43,355 bases of DNA, taken from a virus. Taxonomy: Duplodnaviria > Caudoviricetes. Below are positions 1-34,614 of this stretch, piece by piece. The notes below the pieces were generated by a model that saw only the letters and a list, made by a program, of their open reading frames with translations, was not told the DNA's origin and made no database searches. Every line of letters starts with the position of its first letter. Positions within the stretch are counted from its first letter, which is position 1. The translations under genes were made by a program, and so were the position numbers. Location: the IMG/VR virus record IMGVR_UViG_3300020508_000002, positions 1 through 43,355 of that record; one strand, given 5' to 3'.

Positions 1-99
1 GAATATTTAAGAAAATCTCTTGAAGAATTAAACAAAATTGAAAACCATTTTGCAGTTCATAAAACTGCCACCCAAATTACATGGACAAACGCACGTATT
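1..99 (+). repeat. Terminal overlap, identical to 43257-43355
   Basis: Exact 99-nt match gaatatttaag...gcacgtatt at both ends, inside an ORF, consistent with an assembler k-mer overlap. Confidence 0.95.
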
Positions 100-3000
100 C
101 CTGGCGTTAGGGTTATAAGAGATTCTCAAGGTGGCGCTCCGACTATTGAAATAACTTTACCAAGCGTTCCCAAAACTGGAGTTATTCCTTCACTTAAGTT
201 TTCTGTCGATGCCCCAGTTGAAACCGTTCTTCAATATCTTGACATTCTTGAAGATGCAATCAACAAAGATCGTGGTGCCCAGGAATTAAATTTCGGAGCA
301 GGAATGGAGAACAATATTGGCTGGTTGGTGAGAATTGAAGGTCTCACAAAAGCCAAGGCGTCTTTAAAAACAGCTGCATTAAAAGACATTGCTACGCTAC
401 GTAAAGCTATTCAAGACATACCCGAATGGTCTAGATCTACGGGGATTGAACTTGTTCGTCCCGACTCTTTAATTCCTGGTGTCAGGGACAACATTGTTCC
501 TATTGACAGAAACGCTAGTGACATTCAAGACCTGTTTTGGGACGAAGAGCAATGGCCGGGCAGGGAAGAAGCTTCTTCGGTTGCTTCAAACATTTTTGCA
601 GAGCTTGATGATTTTGACCCAACGGAAGGGCTCACCCAAGATCAAACAATCCTTAACAATATCCCGGTAGACGATCCCGTTCTTAGACAGCAGATCATCG
701 ATGTTCTTAAAGAAGCGATAGAAAACGAATTAAAAGGAAGCAAAAAATTTTCTCTTGCTTCTGACCTTAAATACGTAGTTGATGTTATTGAAGGCCGAGG
801 CGAAGTTAAGCGCCTTGCAAAAGTTGACGACGTTCTTGAACAAGCAAAGCCACCGACAGCCAAGAACACCCGGGCTGACTATGTAATTATCCCTTGCGGT
901 GCTGCCAAGGGTCCGGTTGCAACTACGGCTGCCGAAATGTACCAAGGCTCAATGTTTAAAGATGCACTGGCTACGGCTCGTGAAATGTTTGACGACGACC
1001 GCATTTACATCATCAGTGCTGAGTACGGCCTCCTTCGTCTTGATGACGTTATTGAACCATACGACAAAAAGCTTGGCGACCCTGGCTCCGTTGACAGTAC
1101 AACCATCTCTATGCAATTGCGCGACGAGGGACTTAAGAGGGGATCCAGTATTCTTTCCTTGCTCCCCAAGGAGTACCACAACTTATTGCAGCGTGGTGTA
1201 GAAGGACCAATAAAAGCCAACCCCAACAAACTTACCGTTGAACAATATTTTGCAGGGACAAGGGGAATTGGTGAACAAAAGGGCCGTCTGTCCAATCTTC
1301 GTAAAGAAACAGCTGCACAAAGAGCAGAAGCTGCTGCAGATGGTGCAGCCCTCATTGACCCCGAGCTTGAACAGCTTGCTAACAGCGTTGCCCAAGATCC
1401 TGCGTTGTACGCAAACTTTAGAGGCCAAGTTGAAGAACGTGCCATGTTGGAGCGTGACATTGAGTCAATGCGTAACCCAACACCCGAAGACATTGAGACA
1501 TACCGCAAAGACGCACAGGCCAAAGCACAGGAAGAAGTACGTACCTATGCTGGTGTCCTTGAAGGCATCGGCGGCAAGTGGGACCGTGCCAATGATTCCG
1601 TAACATTCTATGTCAATGTACGTTCCGGTACAGCCGAGTGGGAATGGTGGGACAAGCTTGACTCACGTGAACGCCGTCGTCTCGCCCGTACATATTTCCG
1701 TTCAACTACGGAACGCAGCACCGCAGCCAAGGGTCCAAAGCTTATCCGTGTTGCAGATAACATTGACCAGCTAGCCGACCCTTACGGTCTCACACCTGAC
1801 GAATGGGGCCAGCAGTTTCTTGAAACTGTACGTGAATACGAACGTGCCAAGAAGGCGCTAAAGGAAAGCAAGAGCAAGAACTTCGACCCTCTTGCCGCAA
1901 TCGACGAGAACCCTGAACTTCAGCAGGCACAGGATTACCTTGACCGCTTGATTAACGAAGAGGGTGTTGACAATGATCTTGTAACTGTTGTCAATCGTGC
2001 TCGGGAAATCCTTGGCGACAACGAAATCCCATCTTTGCGTGTCATTGCTGATAAGCCAACCGACGTAGTGCCGGAACGCAAGATCTCTGATCCGACCGTT
2101 CGTCGTGCCGCCTACGAAGCTGACGTCATTAACGCAATGGCCAAAGACGCAACAAAGAAGATGCGTGCTGCCCAGCGAGCAACTGAACGCCTGGCAGCCT
2201 TTGAAGAGTTTATTGTTCAGTCGGAAAAGTATCGTGGAGAAGCGGAAAGGCTGATCCAGCTTCAAAAGACCGGCACCAAGGCTCGTCTTGCTTTAGCAAA
2301 GAACGCTGCTACTCAATCTGCTTTGCGTGAAAAAATTAAAGATAAAAAGAAGAAGGCTCGTAAGCTCAAGATCATTGAGAACCGCCTGGAATCTTCTCAA
2401 ACTCTTGCCGACATTCAATCAATGGGTGGAGCTGCCCCGTTGCGAGTTGCAATGGAAGGTGGCTACCCGTCAGAACAGTTTGCTGTAGGCCTTCCCGACG
2501 GTGAAGATTTCCAGTTCCAGGGGCCAATGTATGTACCTACTGGTCGCCCTGCAGTCTTTACGGGCGGCTTGGCAATGGACCTCCAGCGAGCTGGTCTTTC
2601 CGGATTTGAAATCCTGACAAGCGAACACTATCGAGACGGTGATCGCCAAACAATCTTCTCTATTCGTGGCGTTGCTGCACGACTAGGTAAAGACGTGGGC
2701 CGCATGAGCTCCAACGAATCGTACCGTATGCTTGTTGCACAGTTTGGCAATACAGGTATTGAAGTACTTGGTGAGGATTTGTCACGTTCGCTTTACGAAA
2801 AGGCTTACCAAAAAGTCTCACGCATGAGTGAAGACGATCTCAATCAATCCGTAGTTCGTGTTGGTGCTGACATTGCAGAAGCTGAAGGCGGAACAGCAGC
2901 TTTTTCTTCCGGTGTGCCCAACCCAAAGGCCGCTTTCAACGCTGCGCTTAAAGAAGAATACGGTCGTCTTGTTGTTATTGAGATGGCGAACCGTGGATTT

Positions 3001-4524
3001 AAAGCTATTGATCCGTACAGCAAAATTACTTCACGTATGCCGATTGCTCGCGTTACTCATGAAACTATGTTTGTTCCTACAGGTTTCTCTGAAGCTATTG
3101 CAAAGGTTGAGGCTGTCATTGACCCAGCTTCATGGAACGGATTTCTTCGTGGTGCCCACAAGGTAACAAGCCAATTCAAAACATCAACCCTTGTGTTGTC
3201 TGTCGCCTGGCAGCTTGGCGACCTTTTCTCCAACATGATTATTGCTCAAATGAGCGGTGTCAATGTGGTGGACATGATTCGCCGCATGAAGGAAGTTAAG
3301 GCTGAAGAGTACGGCCCTGGTCTACGCACCCTTGTAGATGCAACTTCAGAATTGCCAACCCCTACCCCCAAGATTCGAATTGCTAAAGAATCACCAATTC
3401 AGGACATTAGCGCTTCTTTGGCTGACCGCCGGTACTTGTACAACATTCCGGAAGGAAACGCACTTCCTCCATTGCTGACTCGTTTGACAGGAAAGCAATA
3501 CCCGGAAGCCGTTCGTGGCCGAGGCGTAATCAACACTTCGTTCAAGATCAACGAAACAATCAACCGTATTCAGCGTCACGCCTATTTCCTTGAAGTTCTT
3601 GATACCAAATTAAAGGCTAAGGGTGTTGACCTTGACACCGTTGCTGCTGACGGTTCTTGGAAGAACGATCCGGAATTGCGTAAGATTGTTCTTGAAGCTG
3701 CAGACACTGCAAACGACTTCTTGGGTGACTTTGCTGACCTTTCGATGAGTGAACGAAAGTATGTGACCCCTTTTATTCCTTTCTACGCATGGACAAAGCA
3801 CATCCATAAAGTGTTCATGATGCTCGGTTCCGACAGCCCGCAGTCTCTTCGCTGGTACATTTACATGGGAACACTTGTTTACGATCCCGACGAAGACCCC
3901 ATGGGCTTGCGATACGGCAACCCAACATGGTTCGGCGGAGCATTCTCAACAAACATTCTTAACCCGTTTGGTGACGTTTTCGGTGGTCCAATTGGTTCAG
4001 TCCTTGCCGACGAGGATGTTAGGCCAGCGCTTAACACCCTTGGCCCCGTACCACGTATTGGTGCTGCGGTGCTGACTGGAAGAAATATTGCCAAAGGCTT
4101 CCAGCCGATTTCTAGGCCGTCGGGAAGTGGTGCGTACACACTCAGCGGATCAGAAATTTCACCGCCACTTCTTCCTTTTACTCGCCCACGTGAATTGCTT
4201 GGATTTACTGCACAGCAGTTCCCAATTGTTAGCCGCGCCATGAACGTTGCACCCGGATCACGCATTCCAGGTACTCGCATTGCCCTTGGTCCGGTTGCTC
4301 GTTACGACACTGGCGAAGTTCGTCTCAACCCACGCACTCGTCAACCCAATGTCAAGTACGGTGGCAGGTTGGCAGCTGTTGGACGCTTGTTCTCTCTTCC
4401 AGGTATTCCGTACCAGGCAGATAGTCAAATTGAAGATGTGATGCGTAGTGCTCGTGACCGTCTGCGTACTATTGAAACCCTCAAGCGCCGTAGGGCCATT
4501 GAGACTGGTGATACGGTGCCCTGA
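1..4524 (+). CDS. C-terminal part of giant (~2,613 aa) internal virion/ejection polyvalent protein with a DUF6884/YaaA-like domain
   Basis: Frame is open from base 1 into the 304..4524 ORF and in frame with the ORF starting at 39939; motif IIPCGAAK...MYQGSMF...IYIISAEYGLL...IEPYD...GIGEQ at ~877-1290; C-terminal FIPFYAW motif of the kind seen in large phage internal proteins. Confidence 0.8.
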   Translation, partial: EYLRKSLEELNKIENHFAVHKTATQITWTNARIPGVRVIRDSQGGAPTIEITLPSVPKTGVIPSLKFSVDAPVETVLQYLDILEDAINKDRGAQELNFGAGMENNIGWLVRIEGLTKAKASLKTAALKDIATLRKAIQDIPEWSRSTGIELVRPDSLIPGVRDNIVPIDRNASDIQDLFWDEEQWPGREEASSVASNIFAELDDFDPTEGLTQDQTILNNIPVDDPVLRQQIIDVLKEAIENELKGSKKFSLASDLKYVVDVIEGRGEVKRLAKVDDVLEQAKPPTAKNTRADYVIIPCGAAKGPVATTAAEMYQGSMFKDALATAREMFDDDRIYIISAEYGLLRLDDVIEPYDKKLGDPGSVDSTTISMQLRDEGLKRGSSILSLLPKEYHNLLQRGVEGPIKANPNKLTVEQYFAGTRGIGEQKGRLSNLRKETAAQRAEAAADGAALIDPELEQLANSVAQDPALYANFRGQVEERAMLERDIESMRNPTPEDIETYRKDAQAKAQEEVRTYAGVLEGIGGKWDRANDSVTFYVNVRSGTAEWEWWDKLDSRERRRLARTYFRSTTERSTAAKGPKLIRVADNIDQLADPYGLTPDEWGQQFLETVREYERAKKALKESKSKNFDPLAAIDENPELQQAQDYLDRLINEEGVDNDLVTVVNRAREILGDNEIPSLRVIADKPTDVVPERKISDPTVRRAAYEADVINAMAKDATKKMRAAQRATERLAAFEEFIVQSEKYRGEAERLIQLQKTGTKARLALAKNAATQSALREKIKDKKKKARKLKIIENRLESSQTLADIQSMGGAAPLRVAMEGGYPSEQFAVGLPDGEDFQFQGPMYVPTGRPAVFTGGLAMDLQRAGLSGFEILTSEHYRDGDRQTIFSIRGVAARLGKDVGRMSSNESYRMLVAQFGNTGIEVLGEDLSRSLYEKAYQKVSRMSEDDLNQSVVRVGADIAEAEGGTAAFSSGVPNPKAAFNAALKEEYGRLVVIEMANRGFKAIDPYSKITSRMPIARVTHETMFVPTGFSEAIAKVEAVIDPASWNGFLRGAHKVTSQFKTSTLVLSVAWQLGDLFSNMIIAQMSGVNVVDMIRRMKEVKAEEYGPGLRTLVDATSELPTPTPKIRIAKESPIQDISASLADRRYLYNIPEGNALPPLLTRLTGKQYPEAVRGRGVINTSFKINETINRIQRHAYFLEVLDTKLKAKGVDLDTVAADGSWKNDPELRKIVLEAADTANDFLGDFADLSMSERKYVTPFIPFYAWTKHIHKVFMMLGSDSPQSLRWYIYMGTLVYDPDEDPMGLRYGNPTWFGGAFSTNILNPFGDVFGGPIGSVLADEDVRPALNTLGPVPRIGAAVLTGRNIAKGFQPISRPSGSGAYTLSGSEISPPLLPFTRPRELLGFTAQQFPIVSRAMNVAPGSRIPGTRIALGPVARYDTGEVRLNPRTRQPNVKYGGRLAAVGRLFSLPGIPYQADSQIEDVMRSARDRLRTIETLKRRRAIETGDTVP

Positions 4525-8631: not shown

Positions 8632-9591
8632 ATGACTTTAGTTTATAAGCCAGCACAAAAGCCCGAATGGCCTGTTATCCAGCAGGGGCCCCGAGTAGCC
8701 ATTCCACGCAACCGTTCCAAGCCAATGGAATCCGAGATGAAGCGCTGTGTCGTTTTGCCGGACATGCAGATTGGTTACTACCGGAACCGCAAGGGGAAGA
8801 TGGAGCCAACTCACGATGAGAAGGCTATCGACCTTGCGCTTGCAATTACCAAGGAAGCTAAGCCTGATGTGGTAGCCCTCGTCGGGGACAACCTGGACTT
8901 ACCGGAGCTCAGCAAGTACCGCATTACCCCGGCATACCAACAGACCACTCAGGAAGCCATTGACCGCGCTTCCCTTATCTGCGCTCAGATTCGGGCCGCA
9001 GCTCCCCACGCCGAGATCATATGGCTGGCAGGCAACCACGAGGAACGCCTCCCAAACCACATCCTAGACAACGCTAGGGCCGCCTTTGGCCTTAGACGAG
9101 GAAATGTACCCGACACCTGGCCCGTGCTCTCTGTGCCCTTCCTGTGCCGTATGGAGGACTATGGGGTGGAATACCGTCCAGGCTACCCAGCCTCACACAT
9201 TTGGCTTAACAACAAGATCCGGATTATTCACGGAAGCAAGGTCAAGAGCAGTGGGTCAACCGCCCACATGTACCTTGCCAATGAGAAACACAGCGTTATC
9301 TATGGACATATCCACAGAATTGAGCTGGCTTACAAGACCCGAGAGGATTATGATGGCCCACGAACCATTATGGCAGCGTCTCCAGGCTGCTTGGCACGGC
9401 TTGACGGAGCAGTTCCGAGCACTAAGCAGGGCATGGATATTGATGGTCGCCCGTTGGTATCTCATGAGAACTGGCAACAAGGGCTAGCCGTAGTAGAGTA
9501 TGAAACTACCGGCAAGAATCGATTTACTTACGAGTCAATCCCTATCTTTGACGGTACTGCTTCCTGGCGTGGTCAATGGTTTAAAGTGTAG
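8632..9591 (+). CDS. Calcineurin-like metallophosphoesterase
   Basis: PDMQ, GDNLD, GNHE, HG and GHIHR motifs; AGGAGG SD. Confidence 0.85.
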   Translation: MTLVYKPAQKPEWPVIQQGPRVAIPRNRSKPMESEMKRCVVLPDMQIGYYRNRKGKMEPTHDEKAIDLALAITKEAKPDVVALVGDNLDLPELSKYRITPAYQQTTQEAIDRASLICAQIRAAAPHAEIIWLAGNHEERLPNHILDNARAAFGLRRGNVPDTWPVLSVPFLCRMEDYGVEYRPGYPASHIWLNNKIRIIHGSKVKSSGSTAHMYLANEKHSVIYGHIHRIELAYKTREDYDGPRTIMAASPGCLARLDGAVPSTKQGMDIDGRPLVSHENWQQGLAVVEYETTGKNRFTYESIPIFDGTASWRGQWFKV

Positions 9592-12764: not shown

Positions 12765-12797
12765 AAAACCCCCAGGGAGAAATTCCCTGGGGGTTTT
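12765..12797. terminator. Bidirectional intrinsic terminator
   Basis: AAAACCCCCAGGGA-gaaat-TCCCTGGGGGTTTT perfect hairpin between convergent genes. Confidence 0.85.
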
Positions 12798-12846
12798 GCT
12801 GTTAGGAGCGATGTAAGTGTACACCTCCCAAAGAGTGAGCGTGGGG

Positions 12847-13116
12847 TCAGAAGGTTGATTTCTTGCGACCAAATACCGCAGTGCCGTGATCGGTGTTGCG
12901 AGCTACGAACTCATACTTCAATCCGTACTTCTTCTGTGCGTCGGAAGCACGTTGGTAACCGGATTGTTTTGTTTGATATGTGTAGAACAATGCCCACACT
13001 CCCTCGTTGGCGTCAAGGAACGCAACGAACTCGCTCATAAGTGGCATCCCTACTCGGTAGCCGTTGCGTGGTGGTGGTGGTGCTTGAAGTTCAAACTTCG
13101 GTGTTTCGTTTTCCAT
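12847..13116 (-). CDS. Hypothetical protein (89 aa)
   Basis: MENETPKFEL..., AGGA SD on the minus strand; ends at the terminator. Confidence 0.65.
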   Translation of the reverse strand: MENETPKFELQAPPPPRNGYRVGMPLMSEFVAFLDANEGVWALFYTYQTKQSGYQRASDAQKKYGLKYEFVARNTDHGTAVFGRKKSTF

Positions 13117-13208
13117 AATATTCCTAACTAGATGGTGCTCACCCACGAAAGAGAGTGAGAGAGTGAGCGAGAGAGATAGTACCCTAGCCCAGCAGTAGAA
13201 ACAACCTA

Positions 13209-13502
13209 TTAGACGGTGATCCAATAGTGACGTGAGCTCGACAGGATTGACAAGGTAAAACGAACGGCGGTGGTGACGGCAGGTGCGAACCCGACTATCT
13301 CGTTTTCTTGGCGACACTCAACTTCTTCGCCACGGGCGTTGCGATAGATACCTCTGACTGCGTACAGCCCTGCACCGACTTTGACCAGTCGCCACTCGCC
13401 ACTGTCTTTTATGATTTGGTTCACGCCAAGTGGAATCTTTGGCGGTGGGGCAACTTCGTTCAGTTGTTCTATTAAAAGTTCTAGGTCTGAAATACTTGAC
13501 AT
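13209..13502 (-). CDS. Hypothetical protein, probably leaderless mRNA
   Basis: MSSISDLELL...; ATG lies 7 nt downstream of a -10 box. Confidence 0.55.
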   Translation of the reverse strand: MSSISDLELLIEQLNEVAPPPKIPLGVNQIIKDSGEWRLVKVGAGLYAVRGIYRNARGEEVECRQENEIVGFAPAVTTAVRFTLSILSSSRHYWITV

Positions 13503-13524
13503 GGTTACGAGGATAGTCCATAAT
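13496..13524 (+). promoter_or_regulatory. Sigma70-type promoter of the early operon
   Basis: TTGACA-N17-CATAAT. Confidence 0.8.
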
Positions 13525-13538
13525 CTCTCCGTCGGCAA
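13510..13538 (-). promoter_or_regulatory. Overlapping divergent promoter
   Basis: TTGCCG-N17-TATCCT on the minus strand, 7 nt before ATG 13502. Confidence 0.55.
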
Positions 13539-13567
13539 TAACGCCGACAACGAAAGAGAGAAATAAA

Positions 13568-14338
13568 ATGACTACAACATCCTCACAATGCTGGAATGAC
13601 TTGAACCTTGCGCTGCAAGCTGGAACCGATCGTGTTCTGCTTTACGGACAGCCAGGAACAGGCAAGACCCATTTCGCATTAACAAAACACCTTGAATACT
13701 TTGACCGCACTCGCAAGTCGTACCGTGTTCTTTGCTCTCCTGACATGACCACCGCAGATGTGGACGGACTGTGGAAGCCAAGCAAGGACGAATGGAAGTT
13801 TGTGACAGGTTCAGCCCTTCGGGCATGGCAAGGTGGAGACCGCCTCATCCTTGACGAACTTGACCAAGCCTCGGGAGATGTGCTCACCGCTTTGTTGCTT
13901 ATCTGTGACAGTGACGGCTCGGCTGTTCGCGAACACCCTGAAACTGGTGAACGCCTTACACCTAAGGATGGCTTTGAAATTATTGCCACCACCAACGCCG
14001 AACGATTGACCGATTTGCCTGCCAACTTGGTGGACAGATTCCCTGTCCGTATCAACATCAACGAGGTGAACCCTGAAGCAGTTGCTTGCCTGCCGATTCA
14101 CTTGCAAGGCGTTGCTCGTGCTTATGCGAACAGAGAGCGTGACCGTTTTAGCCTTCGTTCCTTCTTTGCTTTTGACAAACTCTCTGGCCGGATAGATCGA
14201 CAAGCTGCTGTACGTCTTGTCTTCGGTGACGAGGCTCCTGCAATTTCTACGGCGATTGCCTTGTCGGAAAGCATGGGCAAGGAAAGCGTCTCTCAGGGCG
14301 CAGTGGAATTGACTGTTGGCATGAAGGTTGCGGACTGA
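13568..14338 (+). CDS. MoxR/CbbQ/CobS-like AAA+ ATPase
   Basis: Walker A GQPGTGKT, Walker B LILDELD, ATTN sensor, DRF arginine finger. Confidence 0.88.
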   Translation: MTTTSSQCWNDLNLALQAGTDRVLLYGQPGTGKTHFALTKHLEYFDRTRKSYRVLCSPDMTTADVDGLWKPSKDEWKFVTGSALRAWQGGDRLILDELDQASGDVLTALLLICDSDGSAVREHPETGERLTPKDGFEIIATTNAERLTDLPANLVDRFPVRININEVNPEAVACLPIHLQGVARAYANRERDRFSLRSFFAFDKLSGRIDRQAAVRLVFGDEAPAISTAIALSESMGKESVSQGAVELTVGMKVAD

Positions 14339-15825
14339 TGACCGACTACACGAAAAGAATTGCCTCGCCCGAATGGGTTGTAGCAGATAGGGCTGACATT
14401 GGGCTTGACCCGAGTTTGCAGGAGGGGTGGGTAGTTAATCCTGCCCCTCTTGCGAGGGGTCTCGCCTATACGGATTTCAGTTTGCACGAGATGGCACTGC
14501 CCGAAGGTGACAGTGACCAAGCCAAGGCAGTACGGGTGCATGAGATGGTTCATGCCCGTATTTCTCCGACCAGTGTTCCGCAGGCTCTCATTGACCAGTT
14601 GGGAGTGAGTGCTAACGCAATTCGCATAGCCGAAGAGATGAGAGTGAACCTTGTTGCCCGGCACGTTGCTGACCAGTTTGATAGCAAAGCTCGTATCCGT
14701 GTTGGGGATCTTGTTGGTGATGTTGTTCACTTGGCTGACGGTTCCGAGAAGGGGCTTGCAGATAGTTGTGTAGAACGGAACTCATGGAACGACGCTCTTA
14801 GTTTGTTTCTCGGTACTTACAACACCGAAGTTCACAAACTTGTTAAGCGTCGCTTGGTCAAGAATCCAATGTTCAAGGAAAACTTTGCACTCATTGAGAA
14901 GGAGATGGATTCGAATGGTTGGAAGTTTGACACTCGCAGATTTGTGCCAATTCCACGCAGGCGACTCACTAGCACTGACCCTCTAAAGTTCAGTTGGGTG
15001 GAGAAAAGTGAAGAACACTCTGTTCTCATTCCCGAAGGGTTTATGCTCCGCACCTTTCCATTGGCAAACAAAATTGAAGGATGGATGCAACAGCCACCTG
15101 CCGAATTGGAAAAGGAACTAAAGCGAACCAACGCAAGAAGAAGGCGAGACACTGGAAGCCAGTGGGAACACTTGCGTTTTGGCATGACCTCACTCACTGA
15201 AAACACTGGTTCGTTTATCGGAAAGAGAAAGAGACCAGCCATGACGGGCAAATACCCGTCACGCCCTGACCGTTTGCTTACTGACCCGGAACGCCGCATT
15301 TTTCGCGAGGTGGTTCGGGCTCGTGGTGGCGTTGTTGTCTTTGACTGCTCGGGTTCTATGGGCGTTTCTCATGAGACCGTTCGGGAAACTGTGAAGCAAT
15401 TCGCAGGAGCGTTAATCGTTGTGTACACCAACAGCACCAACAACGCAGGCGCACCTAATGCTTGGGTGGTCGCTAAGAACGGGAGAATGATTACAGAGTC
15501 AGACTTTAATGAGTTGCCACTGCACTGCGGTAACGGCGTAGATGGGCCGATACTTCGGTGGGCACTTCGGCAACGAAAGTCAAACAAGGATTTCATTCTT
15601 TGGGTGTCGGACGGACAAGTAACAGGCAAGAACGACGATATGCACGACGACCTCATCAGAGAGTGTGCGAACTTATCGGTTCGTAACAACATTGTCGGGG
15701 TGGACACTTGTGACCAGGCGATCGAGCTGCTTGCCACGATTAAGCGAACAGGGGCAGTGCCTAAAAACAAATACTGCCGACTGATAACAAACTGGGTGCG
15801 AGCCCTAGAAAAAGAAAAGGATTAA
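14338..15825 (+). CDS. vWA-domain protein with N-terminal HExxH motif (MoxR partner)
   Basis: VHEMVH zincin-like motif; MIDAS DCSGS...SDG; translationally coupled to the AAA gene. Confidence 0.8.
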   Translation: MTDYTKRIASPEWVVADRADIGLDPSLQEGWVVNPAPLARGLAYTDFSLHEMALPEGDSDQAKAVRVHEMVHARISPTSVPQALIDQLGVSANAIRIAEEMRVNLVARHVADQFDSKARIRVGDLVGDVVHLADGSEKGLADSCVERNSWNDALSLFLGTYNTEVHKLVKRRLVKNPMFKENFALIEKEMDSNGWKFDTRRFVPIPRRRLTSTDPLKFSWVEKSEEHSVLIPEGFMLRTFPLANKIEGWMQQPPAELEKELKRTNARRRRDTGSQWEHLRFGMTSLTENTGSFIGKRKRPAMTGKYPSRPDRLLTDPERRIFREVVRARGGVVVFDCSGSMGVSHETVRETVKQFAGALIVVYTNSTNNAGAPNAWVVAKNGRMITESDFNELPLHCGNGVDGPILRWALRQRKSNKDFILWVSDGQVTGKNDDMHDDLIRECANLSVRNNIVGVDTCDQAIELLATIKRTGAVPKNKYCRLITNWVRALEKEKD

Positions 15826-15827
15826 AA

Positions 15828-16604
15828 ATGGATATCAAAGAATTACGCCCACAAGAAGTGATGGACAACTGGCTTACCGCTTACGGCTACGACAAGAACC
15901 GCAGTACAAGCCCCGAGTCCCACTCATTGGGTTATGTCCTCACCATCAACGAGGGTGTGCCCAAGTGGCGCATGTTCGGTGCGGAAGAAGTTGGCGAGCA
16001 GGCTCTGATGGGCACTTTTCGCGAGTCTCTGGCATTGTTGTCTAATGACTACAAGGCAGGCAGGTTCGGAGAAGAAACAACCCGTATCGGTGCAGTGTTG
16101 CTCGTCTCTCATGGGACAGGTCATCACGCATACAAGAACCCCGAGACAGGGGAGAACTTGCGGTATGAAGAACTGACCGAAGGGCAGAAGGAAGAACTGG
16201 CAAAACAGTTTGAGGACGACGGAGTGAGAGAGGAATTAGAGGGCGAAGTGCCTTGTCGAATCGTTAATGTCATCACGCCTACCGGACTTGCAGCTGACGT
16301 TTCGATCGTTCACAAAACTGGGGTGGTGGTTCAACAGATTGAGCAGTATCTAAACGACGGCGAGGGGACTATTCCTCAACCTTGCGGTGCGGTGGATGAT
16401 GCTCTCATGAGTACCTTTATGTTTATGCAGGTAGCCCGTGAATGTGTGGCGAGTGGTGAAGAGATGTCTTTTGCAGGCATGTTGAAAACTGCCACCGAGT
16501 TGCACGACATGCAGGGTGGCAAGCAACTGATTGCTTTCCTACTTCGTATCTTGGCTGGTGGGCTAGAAGAAGGAATTATTTCGTTAGGTGAGGATGACGA
16601 CTAA
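15828..16604 (+). CDS. Hypothetical protein
   Basis: 258-aa acidic ORF with AAGGA SD. Confidence 0.75.
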   Translation: MDIKELRPQEVMDNWLTAYGYDKNRSTSPESHSLGYVLTINEGVPKWRMFGAEEVGEQALMGTFRESLALLSNDYKAGRFGEETTRIGAVLLVSHGTGHHAYKNPETGENLRYEELTEGQKEELAKQFEDDGVREELEGEVPCRIVNVITPTGLAADVSIVHKTGVVVQQIEQYLNDGEGTIPQPCGAVDDALMSTFMFMQVARECVASGEEMSFAGMLKTATELHDMQGGKQLIAFLLRILAGGLEEGIISLGEDDD

Positions 16605-16653
16605 GACCCGATAGCCTGCCCTGTGTCGGGGTTCCCCCTTTCCCCCGACTAGC

Positions 16654-16690
16654 AAGCCCCGATAGGTATCACGCACCTGTCGGGGCTTCT
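16654..16690 (+). terminator. Hairpin-family terminator
   Basis: AAGCCCCGATAGGT/ACCTGTCGGGGCTT stem. Confidence 0.65.
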
Positions 16691-16733
16691 GCTATTCTCG
16701 GGGTGTCTTACCAAACAGAAAGAGGGACAAGAA

Positions 16734-17060
16734 ATGGAAACCAGTTACTTTGCAGATATGGGCGTGTTGGGGCTTTGCCTCATGGCTTGTGTGTGGCTTG
16801 TTGTGTTTAATCAGAATGAGAAGAAGAAATACGAGGACGCCCGACACCGAGCCATTAGTTCAGCATTGAAGGACGGCGAGCGAGTGGTGTTGTCACTGAA
16901 TGTTGTGGGCAACTATCCGCACCGTGTTCTTGTTGATGGCCGGGTGTGGGGGTTTTCCGATATGGGCGATTTGTGGAACTTTCTCGTGACCGATTCAACG
17001 GGCGAGTGTGAGAGTGCGAGAGAGTGGGGCGGAGTGCTCCTCACTCATCCATCCATCTAG
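16734..17060 (+). CDS. Small membrane-anchored hypothetical protein
   Basis: GAAAGAGGG SD; hydrophobic N-terminal segment. Confidence 0.65.
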   Translation: METSYFADMGVLGLCLMACVWLVVFNQNEKKKYEDARHRAISSALKDGERVVLSLNVVGNYPHRVLVDGRVWGFSDMGDLWNFLVTDSTGECESAREWGGVLLTHPSI

Positions 17061-17112
17061 TCCGGCGCGGCCAGGAGATCAGCTCCTCGAAACGTCCACC
17101 CGATCACTTTGG

Positions 17113-17150
17113 AGAACCCTCGGCAGTGTTTGCACTGTCGGGGGTTCTTT
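17113..17150 (+). terminator. Hairpin-family terminator
   Basis: AGAACCCTCGGCAGTG/CACTGTCGGGGGTTCT followed by TT. Confidence 0.65.
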
Positions 17151-17200
17151 CGTGTATGCTCACCCGTGGCAATAGTGCCGACAGCCTGAAAGGGGCAACA

Positions 17201-17791
17201 ATGAGAACAGCAAGCCAACTATTAGAGGACATGGGTACAGCCGTCCCTATGCCTGAGGACACGGGGGCAGTAGCCCAACTGTGGGAACTGTGGGGCAGGG
17301 AATGGGTTGAGGGTCTCGTACCTAACGACAACGATATCTATATGACTATGAACCGCCACGGACAGAACCACCGCCGACTTCCCGACATTGTTAAGCCTGA
17401 CGCTATGGCGATTGTCTGCACTGGCTGGGGTGCTCCTATCAACCCCGAGACGGGGACGCTGGACGCTGACGCTCCGAGCCTGCACCCTGAACGCCGACGG
17501 GTCACACTCTTCACCGTGGTTACTCCTCGGGCTGATGTTGCGTCCCGTTTGGTGATGGGTGACGACGAGCCGACAGATGACCCCGAAGGCGGTGGCGTTG
17601 GTGCATTGGCTGACGCTTTGGACGCTTGCGCTGTTGCGGTGTGGGGTAGTGAGTTCACCTCGTCGCTGGTCATGCAGTACGCCACGGGCAAGGCTGACGG
17701 TGCAGACGAGGCAACGCTTGACCGACTCATAGAACGGGTGGCGAATATTGCCCCGACTGTCCGTGAAGCATTAGAGGGAGAGGGCGAGTGA
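17201..17791 (+). CDS. Hypothetical protein
   Basis: GAAAGGGG SD before ATG 17201 (MRTASQLL...). Confidence 0.7.
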   Translation: MRTASQLLEDMGTAVPMPEDTGAVAQLWELWGREWVEGLVPNDNDIYMTMNRHGQNHRRLPDIVKPDAMAIVCTGWGAPINPETGTLDADAPSLHPERRRVTLFTVVTPRADVASRLVMGDDEPTDDPEGGGVGALADALDACAVAVWGSEFTSSLVMQYATGKADGADEATLDRLIERVANIAPTVREALEGEGE

Positions 17792-18069
17792 TGGGGCGAG
17801 ATATGGCGAGAAATGTTGAAGGCATGGCCGGTACGTCTGCCCTGGCAGCTCGATATGGTGTCACGCCCCCAACGCTCAACAACTGGGAGACCCGTTATCC
17901 GAACTACCCGACCCCTGCCGTTCTTATTCCTTCTAAGCGTTCCGCAATTCGCCTGTGGGATATTGAAGAAATGGACAACTGGGTGAACTGGTACCGAGTT
18001 GTCCAAATCGCAAAATTGCCAACCGTTCCAACAACAGCAACAACAACAGAAAGAGAGGTCTTGCAGTGA
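17788..18069 (+). CDS. AlpA/MerR-type helix-turn-helix DNA-binding protein
   Basis: GTSALAARYGVTPPTLNNW...YPTP...RLWDIEEMDNW pattern. Confidence 0.75.
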   Translation: MMGRDMARNVEGMAGTSALAARYGVTPPTLNNWETRYPNYPTPAVLIPSKRSAIRLWDIEEMDNWVNWYRVVQIAKLPTVPTTATTTEREVLQ

Positions 18070-18386
18070 GTGAGACAACTACCGCCCGCACTGTTTGGGA
18101 ATATGTCGAGGAGACACCGGAGCACCTGGCCGCTTTGGGTCATCTCTGGTCTTGGTCTCTCAATCACGAACCCCACAACGCACCTTTCCCCTTGTTCCTT
18201 GACCTTGTGGACTACTCACAAGAACACTTTGGGAGCAAGTGCAGTGTGTGGGGTGTGACTGACTGCGCTGGCTATGGCTCAACCATTGAGATGGGCTACC
18301 TCGTGGATGCTCTCGCCCTGTTCGTTGAGCGTCCGAGAGAGTGCGAGGAATGGCTTGATGGTCTCTTCACCTTTGAGGACGCCTAG
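18066..18386 (+). CDS. Hypothetical protein
   Basis: GTG start, GAAAGAGAGG SD, GTGA overlap. Confidence 0.7.
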   Translation: MSETTTARTVWEYVEETPEHLAALGHLWSWSLNHEPHNAPFPLFLDLVDYSQEHFGSKCSVWGVTDCAGYGSTIEMGYLVDALALFVERPRECEEWLDGLFTFEDA

Positions 18387-18440
18387 CAACGTCTCCGGCA
18401 GCTCGAAGGTGATCACCTTCGCGAACTGACCCCAACAACT

Positions 18441-18480
18441 GAACCCCGACAGGTCGCCCCCCGACTTGTCGGGGTTCTTT
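18441..18480 (+). terminator. Hairpin-family terminator
   Basis: GAACCCCGACAGGTCG/CGACTTGTCGGGGTTC followed by TTT. Confidence 0.7.
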
Positions 18481-18550
18481 CATGTCTGCTGTCTGTCGGG
18501 TAGTCTCTTCGTGTCGGGCTCGGTGCTCGGCAGTTCTGAAAGGGGACGAA

Positions 18551-18964
18551 ATGAAATACAAGACAACGCTTTACACGGGGGACGGTTTACGCCTTCTTCG
18601 TGTCGCTACCTTTGCCACCTCTGCCGAGGCTGTTGAGTGGGGGCTTGCTTGTGAAGCAATACCTCACTCTGCCGACTTCGGTGATGGCGTCCTGCAGTAT
18701 GTCGTTACTCGTTTTGAGGTTCGCCAGTGGTGCGACAGTTCCGAGGGCTGGTTTCCGTTGGGTGACTGCCCCTGCATGGACTGGCAACTAGATACGGTTG
18801 GCAACTGGGGCAAGGTTGGCGAATGTGCCGACACTGGCGACGGCTGGGCGTCTCGGGCGTTCGCTGGTGCTCTCGGTGATGACAGCACCGCTCCTGCCTG
18901 CTGGAAGTGTGGAGCGTCTGAGCGCATTGGTGACTATTGCAAGGCATGTCTCACCAATCAGTGA
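18551..18964 (+). CDS. Hypothetical protein with C-terminal CxxC...CxxC zinc ribbon
   Basis: GAAAGGGG SD; CWKC...CKAC. Confidence 0.65.
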   Translation: MKYKTTLYTGDGLRLLRVATFATSAEAVEWGLACEAIPHSADFGDGVLQYVVTRFEVRQWCDSSEGWFPLGDCPCMDWQLDTVGNWGKVGECADTGDGWASRAFAGALGDDSTAPACWKCGASERIGDYCKACLTNQ

Positions 18965-18991
18965 CCAACTAGCAACCGACTAGCAACCTAG

Positions 18992-19022
18992 GGAGCCCCT
19001 GCCGATTGGTGGGGGCTTCTTG
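18992..19022 (+). terminator. Hairpin-family terminator closing the early region
   Basis: GGAGCCCCTGCC/GGTGGGGGCTTC followed by TT. Confidence 0.6.
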
Positions 19023-19166
19023 CTGTCTCGGGTGGCATTGAGTGGCGAGCGTGTCGGGCAGTGTCGCCCACAGTGAGAGCGTGAGAGATGCGCCCACTGG
19101 CTCACCCTCACTTCATCACTCACCCTGGCCGCGTCTCAGCTGCTCGACGTGCCGGAATGGCAGACA

Positions 19167-19259
19167 GGGCAGGACGTCACCCCACCGACAGGGCAGGACG
19201 TGGGGAGAGGGAGAGGGCAGGACGTGCCACGACGTAGGGCAGGACGTGGGGCAGGACGT
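19167..19259 (+). repeat. Five direct copies of GGGCAGGACGT (iteron/pac-like)
   Basis: Copies start at 19167, 19191, 19215, 19237 and 19249. Confidence 0.9.
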
Positions 19260-19639
19260 CACCACCTGGCCATCGTTCCGGACTCCATCCCTCCCCACTG
19301 CCCAAGCCCCCAACGTCCCCCCGCTCATCGATCCACACCAACCACCACCCCCCCCACCGCAGAGGGGACCCCAAGCGCGTAATTGATAGCACGTTCCCGT
19401 ACGTTTGACTAAAATTTTTCGGGGTTGCGGAGAGACTGCAGCGTGTCCTAGCGGTGAATTCCTCCTTCTTAGGCCTGATTTGCTCCCGAATGGGGTGAAA
19501 ATGCAGTAAATCTGTACCCGGAGTTAAAAATCTTCCACATTTGTTTCAAAAAGACCCACCTAACAGGTGGAATCCACCAGTGCCAGCTTCTTTCAGGAGC
19601 AATTGTTGACTATCTTGCTGTGTTGACCGAACTAACAGG

Positions 19640-21984: not shown

Positions 21985-22478
21985 TGTCAGAATCGGACGA
22001 AATGCGGGAAAAGCGTATCGCCAATATCCTCCCCCATGCTTTTACACCTGAGAACGCAGCAGAAAACGCCCGCAAGGCCGCAGTCTCTCGTCAAAAAAAC
22101 AAAGACATGGAAAAGCATGTTCGTACCGGTTATTCAAAAGAAATCGTCACAGCGCAGGAACAGCTTAAAAAGCTAGGCCTTAGCAAGATGGCTGCAGCTA
22201 TTCCACGCGAGGACCTCCCTCAGATGGCTATTGCGATCATGGCAGACAACGCTTTGCGTGTTTTGGGTGGAGAATGGGAAATCAAGTCAGCTGAAGAAGC
22301 TACAAAGATTGCCAAGGTATGGCACGACATTCTCCGTCTTGAGATGAACCAAGCTACTACCATTTCCGGCACACAAAATGAGACCCCCGAAACGAGACAA
22401 AACCGCCTTGAAGAACTCCGTCTTGAGGCTAAGCGTCGCGTTGAAGGTGGGTTGAGGGCTGTCGCTGGTGACGCATGA
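21984..22478 (+). CDS. Probable terminase small subunit
   Basis: Immediately upstream of terL; helical; FTPENAAENARKA motif. Confidence 0.5.
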   Translation: MSESDEMREKRIANILPHAFTPENAAENARKAAVSRQKNKDMEKHVRTGYSKEIVTAQEQLKKLGLSKMAAAIPREDLPQMAIAIMADNALRVLGGEWEIKSAEEATKIAKVWHDILRLEMNQATTISGTQNETPETRQNRLEELRLEAKRRVEGGLRAVAGDA

Positions 22479-24061
22479 GCCAACTCCTATCCGATGAAGA
22501 GTTTAATAACCTCTCTACTCGCGAACAAGATGAGTATCTCAAGCTTCTTGAAGAAGACCTTACAGCTTGGTCTCTCCAAGGTAACGAAAGGCAGCTACGC
22601 GCAAATGCGCTACTCGGCAAAGTTGACTGGCTCCTTTACGGCGGTGCAGCGGGTGGAGGTAAATCAGAGCTTCTTACCTACCACGTACACCAGCTCAGCC
22701 TCCGGTTTCCAGGTCATAGAAGCCTACTTATTCGTACCTCCCTCCCCGAACTCCGACGATCTCTGATTATTCGTACCCAGGTACGGTATGCACAGGTAGA
22801 AGTAGACGCAGTATTGCGAAGCGTCGACAACGTTAAAGCGTGGTGGTATGGCAATGGAAGTATTATTGAATACGGTTACTGCGCCCGCGATGAGGATGTT
22901 AGCCAGTTCATGTCTGCTGAGTATGACTTTATTGGCTTTGACGAAGCTACGCAGTTCACGCCGTACCAAATGCTAATGATCTCCGGCCGTCTGCGTACCA
23001 GCAAAAAGATGGCTGCAAAGGGTGTTAGAACCCACGTTATGTTTGCCACCAACCCAGGCGACCGTGGACATACTTTTTTGTACCAAATGCTTGTTGGGCC
23101 TACCCAATACGGTAAATACGCTGTTGTGTACGATGTGTCAAACGGATTTGAGGATCCACCAATTGTACGTCTTGTGGAGCTTCCGGAAGACTTAGAGGAG
23201 TTACAGAACCTTGAAATCGAACATGACCCGAACGACCACCTTGTCGTTGCTTTTGTCCCTTCTACTGTTGTTGATAACCCCTATATTGACCCGACTTACA
23301 AAAAGCACCTATCAATGCTTCCTGAGACGGAACGAAGACAAAAGCTCATGGGCGACTGGGACACGTTTTCGGGACAGTATTTCGTGGAATTTCAACGTAA
23401 CATTCACGTTGTTCCCCCATTCCCGATCCCGGATTCGTGGCAAAAATATCGCGGTGTCGACTTCGGAACAGCAAACCCTTACTGCTGCCTGTGGGGCGCG
23501 ATCGACCCGTCTGACAGCACTATGTATATCTATAGGGAAAGTTATGCTAAAAACCTCACTGCAGCACAGCAAGCCCGGACTATCAAAAGCTTATCTGTAT
23601 CTTCCGAAAACAAACCGGAAACTTACGTTATGAGCGTTGGTGACCCGTCCATGTTTAACAACACGGCGGGCACCGGAACTACAGTTGCAGGACAGTACAA
23701 CAGCAACGGCGTTATCCTAACTAGGGCCAAGAACCAACGTATTGGTGGATGGCAGAACGTACGTCGATATATGGCACCGAGCCCCGTCGATGGCGTTATC
23801 CGTCTTAAAGTGTTTGATAACTGCGTTAATTTAATTAGAACCCTCCCTCAAATGAGGTACGACAAAGGCAATTCTGAAGACTTGGACACCAAGGACGAAG
23901 ACCACGCAGTTGACGCTTTGCGGTATTTGTTAGGCTGCAGACCCTATGAGGTCCATAAACGCGCAGCTAAGAAGTATGCTGAAGGTGCAGATGGACGTGT
24001 ACAGCGTTACATTGAAAGACTCGACAAAATGGGCAAACGCTCAAAAACGAAACGGTGGTAA
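22475..24061 (+). CDS. terL: Terminase large subunit
   Basis: YGGAAGGGKS Walker A, FIGFDEA Walker B, ATNPG, GVDFG, DHAVDALRY. Confidence 0.95.
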   Translation: MSQLLSDEEFNNLSTREQDEYLKLLEEDLTAWSLQGNERQLRANALLGKVDWLLYGGAAGGGKSELLTYHVHQLSLRFPGHRSLLIRTSLPELRRSLIIRTQVRYAQVEVDAVLRSVDNVKAWWYGNGSIIEYGYCARDEDVSQFMSAEYDFIGFDEATQFTPYQMLMISGRLRTSKKMAAKGVRTHVMFATNPGDRGHTFLYQMLVGPTQYGKYAVVYDVSNGFEDPPIVRLVELPEDLEELQNLEIEHDPNDHLVVAFVPSTVVDNPYIDPTYKKHLSMLPETERRQKLMGDWDTFSGQYFVEFQRNIHVVPPFPIPDSWQKYRGVDFGTANPYCCLWGAIDPSDSTMYIYRESYAKNLTAAQQARTIKSLSVSSENKPETYVMSVGDPSMFNNTAGTGTTVAGQYNSNGVILTRAKNQRIGGWQNVRRYMAPSPVDGVIRLKVFDNCVNLIRTLPQMRYDKGNSEDLDTKDEDHAVDALRYLLGCRPYEVHKRAAKKYAEGADGRVQRYIERLDKMGKRSKTKRW

Positions 24062-31733: not shown

Positions 31734-32848
31734 TGCCAATCCGTAGAGGAACAGCGTCAAGTGTTGCTTTAGCTCCTGTCACAACAATCAACACAACGAC
31801 TGAGTTTAATGAGTCGCGCGCAACGTTCAATGCAACTATTGATTCGTCCGGATATATGACAAGCGTTTTGTTTCAATACAGCACTAATGGAACTACGTGG
31901 ACCAACTCGGGAACTGTTTCGGGGGTAACGGGGAACAGTCAATCTGTATCGCACACTCAAACAGGCCTGTCTGTAGGAACTTTGTACTATGTTCGTGCAA
32001 TAGCTACAAATCAAATCGGTAGCACAACTTCTTCAAATACAACTTTTACCACCTGGTCTTTAAAGACTTATTTAAACACGACTGCCGGTTCTTACTCGGT
32101 GTCAGTGCCTTCGATTACTGGTGTTGCACCAACTATTTACGAAATGCTTTTGTACGGCGGCGGTGGTGGAGCGAACTATTCAGGTGGTGGCGGCGGCGGC
32201 TATCGCCTTGCTGCTAGTCACACATCGTCAACCACGGGTACACAGACAGTTTCAGGTTCAGTAGGTGGCGGCGGTGCCGCAGGAAACGGCGGCGGTGGGA
32301 CTGGTAGTGCAACAGCAGGTGGCAGCACAACATTAACCGTCGGTTCAACAACATGGACTGGTGGCGGCGGCGGAGCAGGACAGCACCCAGGTAGTTGCGG
32401 AGCGTCATGTGGTGGTCGTGGCGGAACTGTCGGTTCAGGAACTAACGGTGCAAACATCGGAGGTTGCACTACCTACGGTTACTACTACGTTTCTAGCCAA
32501 ACCTTTATTTGCACAGCGTCCGACAAAAACGGTTGTACTGCTGGCTATTTCCAAGATAACTATTCCTACGATTGTGGTTACTACGCAGGCGGCGGCGGCG
32601 GCGGTACTGATGGCGGTGGTGCTAACGCAGCCACACAGAACAGTGCTTCACATGTCGGCGGTGCTGGCGGTACAGGTGGCGGGGCATACGGTCTTCGTGG
32701 AGGCAACGGCGGTGGAGGTCAAGGCACCCAAGGCAACGGGGCAGCAGGTGGTTTTTCTGTTGGTTCCGGGACAATCGTAGGTACCGGCGGGTCTGTATTT
32801 GCTGGTGGTTCCGCTGGTGGTATAACATTTAAGTATTACGGACCGTAA
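31733..32848 (+). CDS. Glycine-rich fibre/receptor-binding protein with FN3-like N-terminus
   Basis: TGLSVGTLYYVRAIATN FN3 motif, GGGGG repeats, Cys-containing loops. Confidence 0.75.
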
Positions 32849-32860
32849 CAAAGGAAAAAT

Positions 32861-33979
32861 ATGGAACAGTTCACGTTGGACAAAATTAAAAACTACAAAA
32901 TGTTTTATGTCTTAAAGAAAATTAAATCAACATCGCAAGAAATTGTTTTGCTACATAAGCAATCACAAGAGATGGTTGTTGTCGAAACAGAAAAGTACGA
33001 CCTGTTTCAAGTCGGAGCTGATCAAGTGCTTGTTGCTTTTGTAGACGTTTTCCAACACGCTGGTAAGCATAATTATGTTGCGTCTGACGGTTTGCTGGAG
33101 GAAAACATTCTTCTTAACCCGTATGAAAAAATAGTTGACTACTACAAAACGGATCGAGACGACGAACCTTCAGGGGTTTTTCTTTTTCTTAATTCTTGCC
33201 CGGCCGTTTTAGAAGGCCAAGATTGGCGTTGCGATAACGCATTATTTGGTCCTCGTGGATTTTTCCCAGTTGGTCAAGAAGAAAAAAGACTAATAGACGG
33301 TATCACAAAAATTAAAGTATACGAACCGGTATTAAGCATTAACGGTGTCGGACACATTGTTTATTTTAAACACGAGGGTGACGATACTGAATTAAGATTT
33401 GATTACATCAATAACGCAGAACTTCCTCAATCAGCAGAAACGTTTTCTGAAATGATTAAGCTAATCCTTGAATGGGCTAAAGTTTCTGAAGAACCTTTTA
33501 ACAACACCGAACAGATTGCAATTAAGGCAAAACAATTTGTGGATAATTTTGGGATATCGGAAAGCTTTGTTGCCGATCAGCCGAGTATGCAGGTGGTCAA
33601 ATATCTACAAGGCGATACGCTGGCACGGGTCCGTACTCATGGGACATATAAGATTTCTGATGCGATAAACAGTTTAGTTGTTGACAATCTTCCGTATATG
33701 ACCTTTAGTAAAATTGCTGAACTTAACCCTACAATGTTCAATCTTAAAGAGTGTTTGGAAACAGAAATTCAATGGTCGCAAGAAGAATGGGACCAAGCAT
33801 TGGTAACACACAACATTACGGAACCCAAAGAATATGGCGATGTTGACGGAGTTTGCGAACATATCTTAAGCACTTTTCCTAACAATTTGACCTTTCCCAA
33901 AATAGTTTTTGGCCTTTTGAAAAAAAAGAAAGAATTGTTAGAAGAAGCATTTAACAGTCCGTCCTTGATGGTGGACTAG
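32861..33979 (+). CDS. Hypothetical protein (AT-rich gene)
   Basis: 372-aa ORF, AAGGA SD. Confidence 0.75.
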   Translation: MEQFTLDKIKNYKMFYVLKKIKSTSQEIVLLHKQSQEMVVVETEKYDLFQVGADQVLVAFVDVFQHAGKHNYVASDGLLEENILLNPYEKIVDYYKTDRDDEPSGVFLFLNSCPAVLEGQDWRCDNALFGPRGFFPVGQEEKRLIDGITKIKVYEPVLSINGVGHIVYFKHEGDDTELRFDYINNAELPQSAETFSEMIKLILEWAKVSEEPFNNTEQIAIKAKQFVDNFGISESFVADQPSMQVVKYLQGDTLARVRTHGTYKISDAINSLVVDNLPYMTFSKIAELNPTMFNLKECLETEIQWSQEEWDQALVTHNITEPKEYGDVDGVCEHILSTFPNNLTFPKIVFGLLKKKKELLEEAFNSPSLMVD

Positions 33980-33999
33980 GATTAGGATAGAATTAACCC

Positions 34000-34614
34000 A
34001 TGAACCGTGGTCAAATCCGTACGGCTGTAAAGCAACGCCTGGCAATCCCTGCATCCGGCGACGGCCTGTTGCCGGACACCACGATTGACTCTTTGATTAA
34101 CCGTTCCCTAGCTACTATCTCAGCCACCAAGGAATGGCCCTGGTTGCTTGATACCCAGGCTATGACTTTTGTAGGCGGCTCGGCTACTGTCCCTAACGAC
34201 TTCGTACGGGCCCGCCAGCTGGTTATTAACGAGCTTCCGGTTATGTGGGTCCAACTTGAGGACTTCCTTGACCCTGACCGTATGACGGCCACCTTTGCTT
34301 GGACGATTATCGGTAACAAGGCTCGGCTCAACCCTCTTCCGACAACCGATCAAAACGGGACTTTATATTACTACCGGAGCGAACCTGAACTGCTGAGCGA
34401 CTATTCGACACCGCTTATGCCAGCTTTGCACCACCCTCTAATCGTTGCCTACACGGCGTACCTTGCAGCCATGGTCCGCCAGGACGAAGGGCGTGCTGCG
34501 GTATACCAGGCTGAGTACCAGTCAATCCTTAACACCATGCGAGATGACTTGAAGCAGAACACCTCCCGCCGCATTCGGTATAGCCCTGGTTACCAACATG
34601 CTGCGTGGTCATAA
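34000..34614 (+). CDS. Head-tail adaptor / tail tubular protein A-like
   Basis: IN..L..I....WPWL...VP.DF...P...H..IV pattern; position. Confidence 0.7.
   Translation: MNRGQIRTAVKQRLAIPASGDGLLPDTTIDSLINRSLATISATKEWPWLLDTQAMTFVGGSATVPNDFVRARQLVINELPVMWVQLEDFLDPDRMTATFAWTIIGNKARLNPLPTTDQNGTLYYYRSEPELLSDYSTPLMPALHHPLIVAYTAYLAAMVRQDEGRAAVYQAEYQSILNTMRDDLKQNTSRRIRYSPGYQHAAWS

Follow-up and report, generated by a model that had tools for sequence, protein, structure and literature searches.

According to the textbooks, the loss of restriction sites benefits a phage, and most of all in the DNA that is injected first. Why, then, would a phage that has stripped most such sites from its inferred entering end keep a few of every type there and pack them into tight groups? 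The question is raised by IMG/VR virus record IMGVR_UViG_3300020508_000002 (Duplodnaviria; Caudoviricetes), whose whole analysed stretch of 43,355 nucleotides is hereafter referred to as the window, and by one block within it:

12833..19350, unstranded: purged block at the inferred first-injected end, retaining about 1-2 sites per kb per type

We found the feature to be real and selected, and the mechanism proposed for it, in which the retained sites would carry methylation marks, plausible but unproven. The sites were observed to have both an upper and a lower limit (a ceiling and a floor), to be tightly clustered and to be rebuilt when lost, and relatives showed one-site saturation; the floor, the rebuilding and the saturation point to a second pressure in the same DNA, opposite to avoidance.

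Between 12833 and 19281, 65 sites of seven types fall into 20 clusters (40-bp linkage), compared with 43.5 under uniform placement (lowest value 31 in 5000), and for 92% of them a site of a different type lies no more than 40 bp away (expected 50%). Along the genome, sliding 3-kb intervals reached z values of -3 or below in only 4 of 27 cases, with starts between 12001 and 16501, the remaining 23 lying between -2.2 and +2.5. The nine early genes hold 40 coding sites versus 111 ± 8 in synonymous codon shuffles (lowest 83 in 2000), and at equal site counts these form 15 clusters versus 29.5 ± 2.5 (none of 2000 shuffles as low), so that the codon-shuffle comparison suggested beforehand came out on the side of clustering. 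Seven late genes were near or above shuffle expectation, except for TCGA (34 vs 53) and CGCG (25 vs 39). A second low-count stretch (32001-34000; 8 and 12 sites per kb, weak clustering with z -2.2) lies in two unassigned genes after the collagen fibre gene.

The original prediction, made from the sequence of the window, had described these palindromes as nearly absent from 12833..19281 and concentrated in recurring clusters. Its coordinates match: the gaps 16308-16937, 17106-17825 and 18424-19123 hold 0, 0 and 0 of the seven sites, and its contrast stretch 8941-9222 holds 11. The region is depleted, at about 1-2 sites per kb per type rather than zero, and the pattern continues past the proposed right limit to about 19350. 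The clusters it likened to polylinkers are real, although GCGC, which it had listed among their sites, is outside the pattern (2 of 9 near other sites). Motifs that did not define the clusters also fall within them, namely ACGT (13 of 16; 9 of 9 left of 19160), CCWGG (7/7), GCWGC (7/7) and GCSGC (4/4); many GCWGC and GCSGC copies share bases with core sites, so the independent check of clustering is ACGT. GCGC, TGCA, CATG, GTAC, CTAG and AATT showed no concentration in the clusters. The retained panel is GATC, AGCT, CCGG, GGCC, TCGA, CGCG, ACGT, CCWGG and GCNGC, all nine of which are classic targets of 5-methylcytosine methylases. The individual clusters, all unstranded, are as follows:

12888..12904: GATC, AGCT; inside a small minus-strand open reading frame
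13218..13241: GATC, ACGT, AGCT, TCGA; just ahead of a TTGACA hexamer
13612..13656: GCWGC, AGCT, GATC, CCWGG; coding
14186..14215: GGCC, CCGG, GATC, TCGA, AGCT, GCWGC, ACGT; coding, with AGCT shifted in strain L001
14658..14710: CCGG, ACGT, AGCT, GATC; coding
15286..15307: CCGG, GCSGC, CGCG; coding, in a conserved protein motif
15714..15730: CCWGG, GATC, TCGA, AGCT, GCWGC; coding, with CCWGG lost in strain L002 and regained 15 bp off
16256..16307: TCGA, CCGG, GCWGC, AGCT, ACGT, TCGA, GATC; coding
17062..17105: full polylinker, flanked by a stop codon and a hairpin; L001 has the same types in another order
17826..17853: GGCC, CCGG, ACGT, CCWGG, GCWGC, AGCT, TCGA; coding
18106..18133: TCGA, CCGG, CCWGG, GGCC, GCSGC; coding
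18389..18423: ACGT, CCGG, GCWGC, AGCT, TCGA, GATC, CGCG; intergenic, ahead of a terminator at 18441-18477, reordered in L001 and L002
19124..19155: full polylinker, some 200 bp away from the terminal element described below; site order changed in L001 and L002
19265..19333: CCWGG, GGCC, CCGG, then TCGA/GATC; end-proximal, adjoining short GGCAGGACGT repeats (19163-19260)

Overlapping sites make up 17 of 43 close pairs in the block versus 53 of 301 in late DNA. No shared longer word, footprint motif or repeat was found at the clusters, and none of the seven tested gave a stable fold or hairpin (z -1.2 to +1.7). Among the three functions first put forward for the clusters, methylated self-marks fit best, whereas decoys and protected windows find no footprint motif, hairpin or repeat to go with them. 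Several full clusters follow a stop codon and precede the next hairpin or promoter (17062, 18389, 13218; also in L085-L088), which would suit methylation-sensitive control elements that tune the early genes to the methylases of the last or present host. Yet there are 15 coding clusters or single sites inside genes, the order of sites is free, and the saturation that runs through coding DNA of relatives (see below) is unlike an operator; we regard such control as improbable.

We then compared the block with its relatives. A single silent change could remove 39 of the 40 coding sites. Two sister strains (L001 and L002; 95-96% identity) nevertheless keep the places of the clusters, with the sites inside in a new order. 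Where a site was lost, another of its type stood no more than 60 columns away in 11 of 18 cases in L001 and 6 of 8 in L002, giving 17 of 26 combined versus 4 of 33 in late genes, a count in which some replacements lie in patches too diverged for base-by-base alignment. Relatives more distant than these strains form polylinkers of their own, with seven types in about 30 bp (L085) or about 65 bp (L088). The expectation that relatives would show the pattern held for 7 of 11 near loci (clustering z -7.5, -6.9, -5.9, -3.7, -2.6, -2.4 and -2.2) and failed for L083, L084, L089 and L090 (+0.8 to -1.4). Retention of the sites is, with high confidence, selected and not accidental.

To look for a lower limit on site number, we took the window together with seven loci, eight near relatives in all; L001, L002, L089 and L090 were left out as near-duplicates or saturated. 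Depleted core sites mostly stand at 0.6-2 per kb, and only 1 of 39 depleted site-by-phage pairs has two copies or fewer, versus 37 of 73 for 22 other palindromes, a contrast drawn among relatives that share ancestry and with a panel picked from the window itself. TTAA, ACGT, TGCA, CATG, GANTC and GGNCC reach zero in particular lineages. The six core sites are also spaced more evenly than random (combined p 1e-4 to 7e-3 over 10-11 loci; CCGG p 0.01), p-values that overstate independence because the near relatives share ancestry; even spacing was not seen for GTAC, CTAG, AATT, CATG or GCGC at the same loci. The first site lies within 300 bp of the block end in 42 of 48 site-by-phage pairs (hand tally; the DNA becomes richer in GC there). 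The block retains CGCG where the rest of the DNA has nearly lost it, with 5 in 6.3 kb versus 2 in 20.3 kb in G001, and 11 in the block versus 3 in the remaining 16.7 kb in G008. Given both a ceiling and a floor, the sites must be both costly and useful.

These results bear on a rival account, in which ordinary restriction avoidance stayed incomplete where protein or RNA constraints forced some sites to remain. It is established that phages avoid restriction sites in the DNA injected first, and purged leading DNA is described for the early region of Autographiviridae in PMC12455610; one cluster (15286) also sits in a conserved protein motif. However, coding sites can be removed silently and lost ones are regained. 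Site density is highest in the clusters between genes, the same DNA has lost other palindromes down to zero, other phages carry homologous genes without the sites, and all seven clusters tested lacked a stable fold. Silent removability, turnover and the contrast between floor and zero largely refute this reading, which we consider highly improbable. The earlier claim that avoidance alone cannot explain the clusters, which may thus be functional, is supported by the compensatory turnover, the same floor-versus-zero contrast and the saturated relatives described next.

The right boundary of the block lies at a conserved element, located relative to the terminase gene as follows:

19347..19419, plus strand: C-run/G-run element with a CCCGTA..TTT core at its end; bounds the block on the right in both clades
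22475..24061, plus strand: terminase large subunit, 3.1 kb right of the C-run/G-run element

The element is conserved in both the near and the far clade, 1.4-4 kb ahead of the terminase, and is likely the genome terminus or packaging start. Five related contigs start 34-68 bp before the core and three stop 12-100 bp past it, which fits a fixed end with a short repeat but also assembly breaks at homopolymers. The block to its left would enter first, as the last-in, first-out rule and the one-sided anomaly together suggest. Depth was flat over the block (X1 ~20-23, X2 ~22-27; contigs only), with no doubling in these contigs that would point to a long terminal repeat.

Left of the same element, distant relatives (terminase ~70% identical) show saturation with single palindromes. 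Within 3 kb, TCGA occurs 158 times in G004, TCGA 108 and GATC 75 times in G021, CGCG 43-58 times in six genomes, GGCC 39 times in G015 and CCGG 61 times in L335; G011 has no single-site excess there. Over the same 3 kb, AGCT occurs 28 times in the relative G008. In the shared GP88 gene, TCGA occurs 44 times in L079 versus 18.5 by codon shuffle, and 0 times in L049, whereas the CGCG excess varies (z 0.5 to 4.4), amino-acid and codon choice accounting for much of it. The TCGA/CTCGAG saturation of L079 and G004 runs through coding DNA (CTCGAG 63 times in L079), and L112 carries 162 TCGA and 99 GATC in 6.5 kb. At the inner edge of the far-clade early region, L079:3478-4398 (minus strand) gave weak tyrosine-recombinase matches, and 299-aa genes similar to it occur in L079 relatives.

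Such densities also bear on two further explanations. The sites could be kept for cutting, as decoys or as breaks that trigger RecT-type recombination and cassette shuffling, given that a RecT-like gene adjoins the block and that gene content varies beside clusters (17794-18065 is missing from L001 and L002). Against planned cutting stand the lack of a depth doubling that would point to a spare copy of the block (contigs only), the clusters inside conserved genes and the spacing in G004, where a site every 20 bp would shred the early genes; its probability is about as low as that of the control elements. Alternatively, the sites could be by-products of mutation or repair, for example methylase sites arising through Vsr-type short-patch conversion, or scars of restriction cuts that were re-ligated. 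Such processes could yield a lineage-specific single-site excess in a recombining region, and GC content climbs toward the end, but they leave unexplained nine types in 30-50 bp, a constant floor, intact frames and a sharp stop at the terminal element, and we hold them a little less probable still.

We further examined methyltransferases, as the original prediction had stated that the phage encodes none. This holds for the window genome, in which no methyltransferase family was found, although long C5 methyltransferases are encoded in 10 of 33 related records; these ten belong to the far clade, and complete near-clade records contained none. No C5 methyltransferase match was found in the records of L079 and G004, G021 or L112. 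The seven enzymes extracted carry shuffled short modules; in the long enzymes of L185:1462-3105 and L187-L200 these measure 30-45 aa, with a different set in each phage. Six of the seven methyltransferase genomes are depleted genome-wide (0.36-0.76) for CCGG, GGCC, AGCT, TCGA, CGCG and ACGT, which suggests, in a contrast confounded with lineage, that the panel may correspond to the motifs methylated in this host community.

The following genes and signals lie in and beside the block:

12765..12797, unstranded: terminator-like hairpin after the RecT-like gene, left boundary of the purged block
13496..13524, plus strand: sigma-70-like promoter match (11/12; consensus match only) ahead of the ATPase gene
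13568..14338, plus strand: AAA_5 (MoxR-like) ATPase gene
14338..15825, plus strand: 495-aa ATPase partner gene, phrog_33218
15828-16604, 16734-17060, 17201-17791, 17788-18069, 18066-18386 and 18551-18964, plus strand: six small early-type genes

The ATPase partner is a putative VWA protein by our own reading of its DCSGS motif. The six small genes at 15828..18964 are all directed toward the terminal element; one has PHROG DNA-binding matches, one matches phrog_33275 and four are without a family match. PADLOC, NCBIfam and Atlas gave no assignment for early proteins other than the ATPase. Two acidic proteins (15828-16604 and 17201-17791), without family or Atlas matches, resemble distant paralogs by eye (PETG and TP..ADV motifs) and are candidates for anti-defence functions. 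The small DNA-binding gene at 17794-18065 is missing from L001, L002 and one contig of run X1 and is therefore a variable cassette. GAGAGTG/GAGAGAG runs recur by gene ends in the early block (13148-13175, 16997-17036, 18326-18343 and 19072-19088).

The record is a complete phage genome of 43.3 kb with a 99-base overlap between its ends. Its genes include those for WhiB, a RecT-like protein, a terminase, a P22-like portal and an SU10-type adaptor, a set that indicates a podovirus-like phage, probably of actinobacteria in view of WhiB. One uninterrupted reading frame, about 2,600 codons long and carrying a DUF6884 (YaaA-like) domain, spans the circular junction (39915-43355 continuing into 1-4524) and likely encodes a giant virion protein. 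Phage DNA was present in 24 listed lake and freshwater runs, and the 12.8-19.3 kb region was contained in contigs of all four public lake runs examined, as well as in other records; an assembly artefact was therefore rejected. Annotated phage relatives yielded one weak match only, WhiB searches for the host matched only viral clusters or nameless proteins, and a genome-collection scan for the host returned a single uninformative match, a 3-kb contig in a planctomycete-labelled bin.

As to what the retained sites are for, the simplest source of benefit would be their methylation by the last host. If the element at 19.35-19.42 kb is the genome end and packaging proceeds rightward, the block to its left would be last in and first out. 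A phage without its own methylase would leave each host marked only at that host's motif, such that keeping every common type once in the last 300 bp or so before the end, and again at intervals of 1-1.5 kb, would provide marks from any host. Each unmarked site would be a liability in the next host, setting the ceiling, and clustering and overlap would place each liability beside a marked base. Early gene products would then disarm the defences, leaving the rest of the genome unconstrained. Generalists without a methylase would keep a minimal panel, while host-specialist relatives would saturate their leading DNA with the single motif of their host. We give about an even chance to the broad form of this proposal, a cis-acting epigenetic passport in a freshwater actinophage family, taking the form of a multi-host panel or one-motif saturation, that would silence attack on unmarked DNA or recruit host enzymes for entry. 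More tentatively, at somewhat below even chances, the sites may act as a methylation passport in the strict sense, a minimal host-methylase panel that switches off a methylation-repressed host defence while limiting restriction.

By analogy, the best candidate for the reader of such marks would be a DISARM-like helicase sensor. In a preprint on class 1 DISARM (10.1101/2021.12.28.474362), motif-free DNA was restricted 47-fold, unmethylated motifs worsened restriction up to 12-fold, and methylated donors raised transfer 82-134-fold. DrmAB is described as repressed by 5-methylcytosine methylation in PMC9142583.

Several observations weigh against the passport. The reader of marks is hypothetical, and strictly the marks would need no clustering. 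Clustering is missing from four of the near loci, as noted above, and GGCC is at zero in L086. G004 and G002 lack a methyltransferase and yet are low for some panel sites, consistent with the lineage confound, and relatives that carry the enzyme still purge most panel sites from their leading DNA. No link was found between methyltransferase module and enriched site, G009 and G014 sharing, by our reading, no module despite their CGCG excess. In published work, a motif-free control also rose 21-fold with methylating donors and DISARM protection against phages did not scale with site number (10.1101/2021.12.28.474362), DrmAB binds single-stranded DNA and 5' overhangs but not plain duplex (PMC9142583), and seven Lake Biwa actinobacterial bins showed no motifs or methylases (PMC6329791).

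Larger phages add a further point on the same side. In L100, L103, L125, L126 and L129, which carry distant homologs of the ATPase partner, the panel is at zero or nearly so over 5-7.5 kb, so the marks are no universal requirement. Total purging is thus possible in these genes, and the floor is particular to the family of the window. The purged blocks of these five phages lie left of and across the ATPase partner gene, are free or nearly free of 15 tested palindromes except GCGC (some also CATG or TTAA), and end at a GC-rich, site-dense stretch adjoining a conserved GACGGTGGYGGATGA word, possibly an injection stop. An apparent clustering in the larger phages (z down to -10) was rejected, as the interval had straddled purged block and normal DNA.

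That the need appears specific to this podovirus-like family, the larger phages doing without it, would also suit a different role, in which site-specific proteins of the host, be they methylases or site-loaded translocases, dock at the sites and either draw the leading DNA into the cell or shield it, irrespective of its marks. The first sites lie near the end and their spacing is bounded; moreover, the early genes of the window point toward the inferred entering end, so that transcription would not pull the DNA in, and a type I enzyme is reported to be able to pull in T7 DNA, although a literature search returned no paper on this. Nevertheless, far-clade early genes point away from the end although their sites are saturated, methylases are scarce and transient binders, and a bound unmarked site invites cutting. 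Docking is unlikely in our judgement.

If the methylation passport is true, the sequence itself would testify that hosts check how methyl marks are spaced, a question of long standing for systems of the DISARM type, and the favoured words would reveal the methylases, hence the host range, of uncultured hosts from phage sequence alone. The natural variants (site-free, panel and saturated) are ready test fragments. We found no description of retained or enriched multi-type sites, or of saturation, in leading phage DNA in open-licence PMC and bioRxiv.

Among known systems, the first-step-transfer (FST) DNA of T5/BF23 and the avoidance of Autographiviridae resemble the block in that depletion is limited to small early genes at an inferred genome end. 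T5 FST-type avoidance, however, is an absence of sites, whereas here the bounded early depletion leaves the core sites at about 1-2 per kb, with nine types held at a floor, clustered and rebuilt, and in relatives a single site climbs to as many as about 50 copies per kb; T5 also has a long terminal repeat with two-step transfer, of which contig depth gives no sign here. Chi near phage ends is a self-mark for RecBCD, one oriented, non-palindromic word that is read without modification. The likeness is that short words are retained or concentrated close to the end that enters, leading a host machine to take the DNA for its own, but here there are nine palindromes in free order and without a shared flanking word. 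In P1, the GATC clusters of pac and the origin are host methylase sites kept for function, of one type at one locus, compared with clusters of many types that recur along 6.5 kb in the window. Multispecific phage C5 methyltransferases of the SPR/phi3T type have target panels that overlap with that of the window, and the long C5 enzymes of far-clade relatives are similar in their shuffled modules; the phage of the window is without such an enzyme, and protection by a methyltransferase of its own does not apply to its genome. Finally, DISARM (DrmABC with DrmMI/DrmMII) is a host system that needs single-stranded DNA or a 5' overhang (DrmAB), whereas the present feature is known from phage sequence alone; no phage counter-strategy to DISARM by site retention was found in open-licence PMC and bioRxiv. 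DISARM is reported to restrict motif-free DNA, with unmethylated motifs faring worse and methylated DNA being rescued, a combination that would select for both a floor and a ceiling, and the DISARM motifs include CCWGG and MTCGAK, as the panel of this phage includes CCWGG and TCGA.

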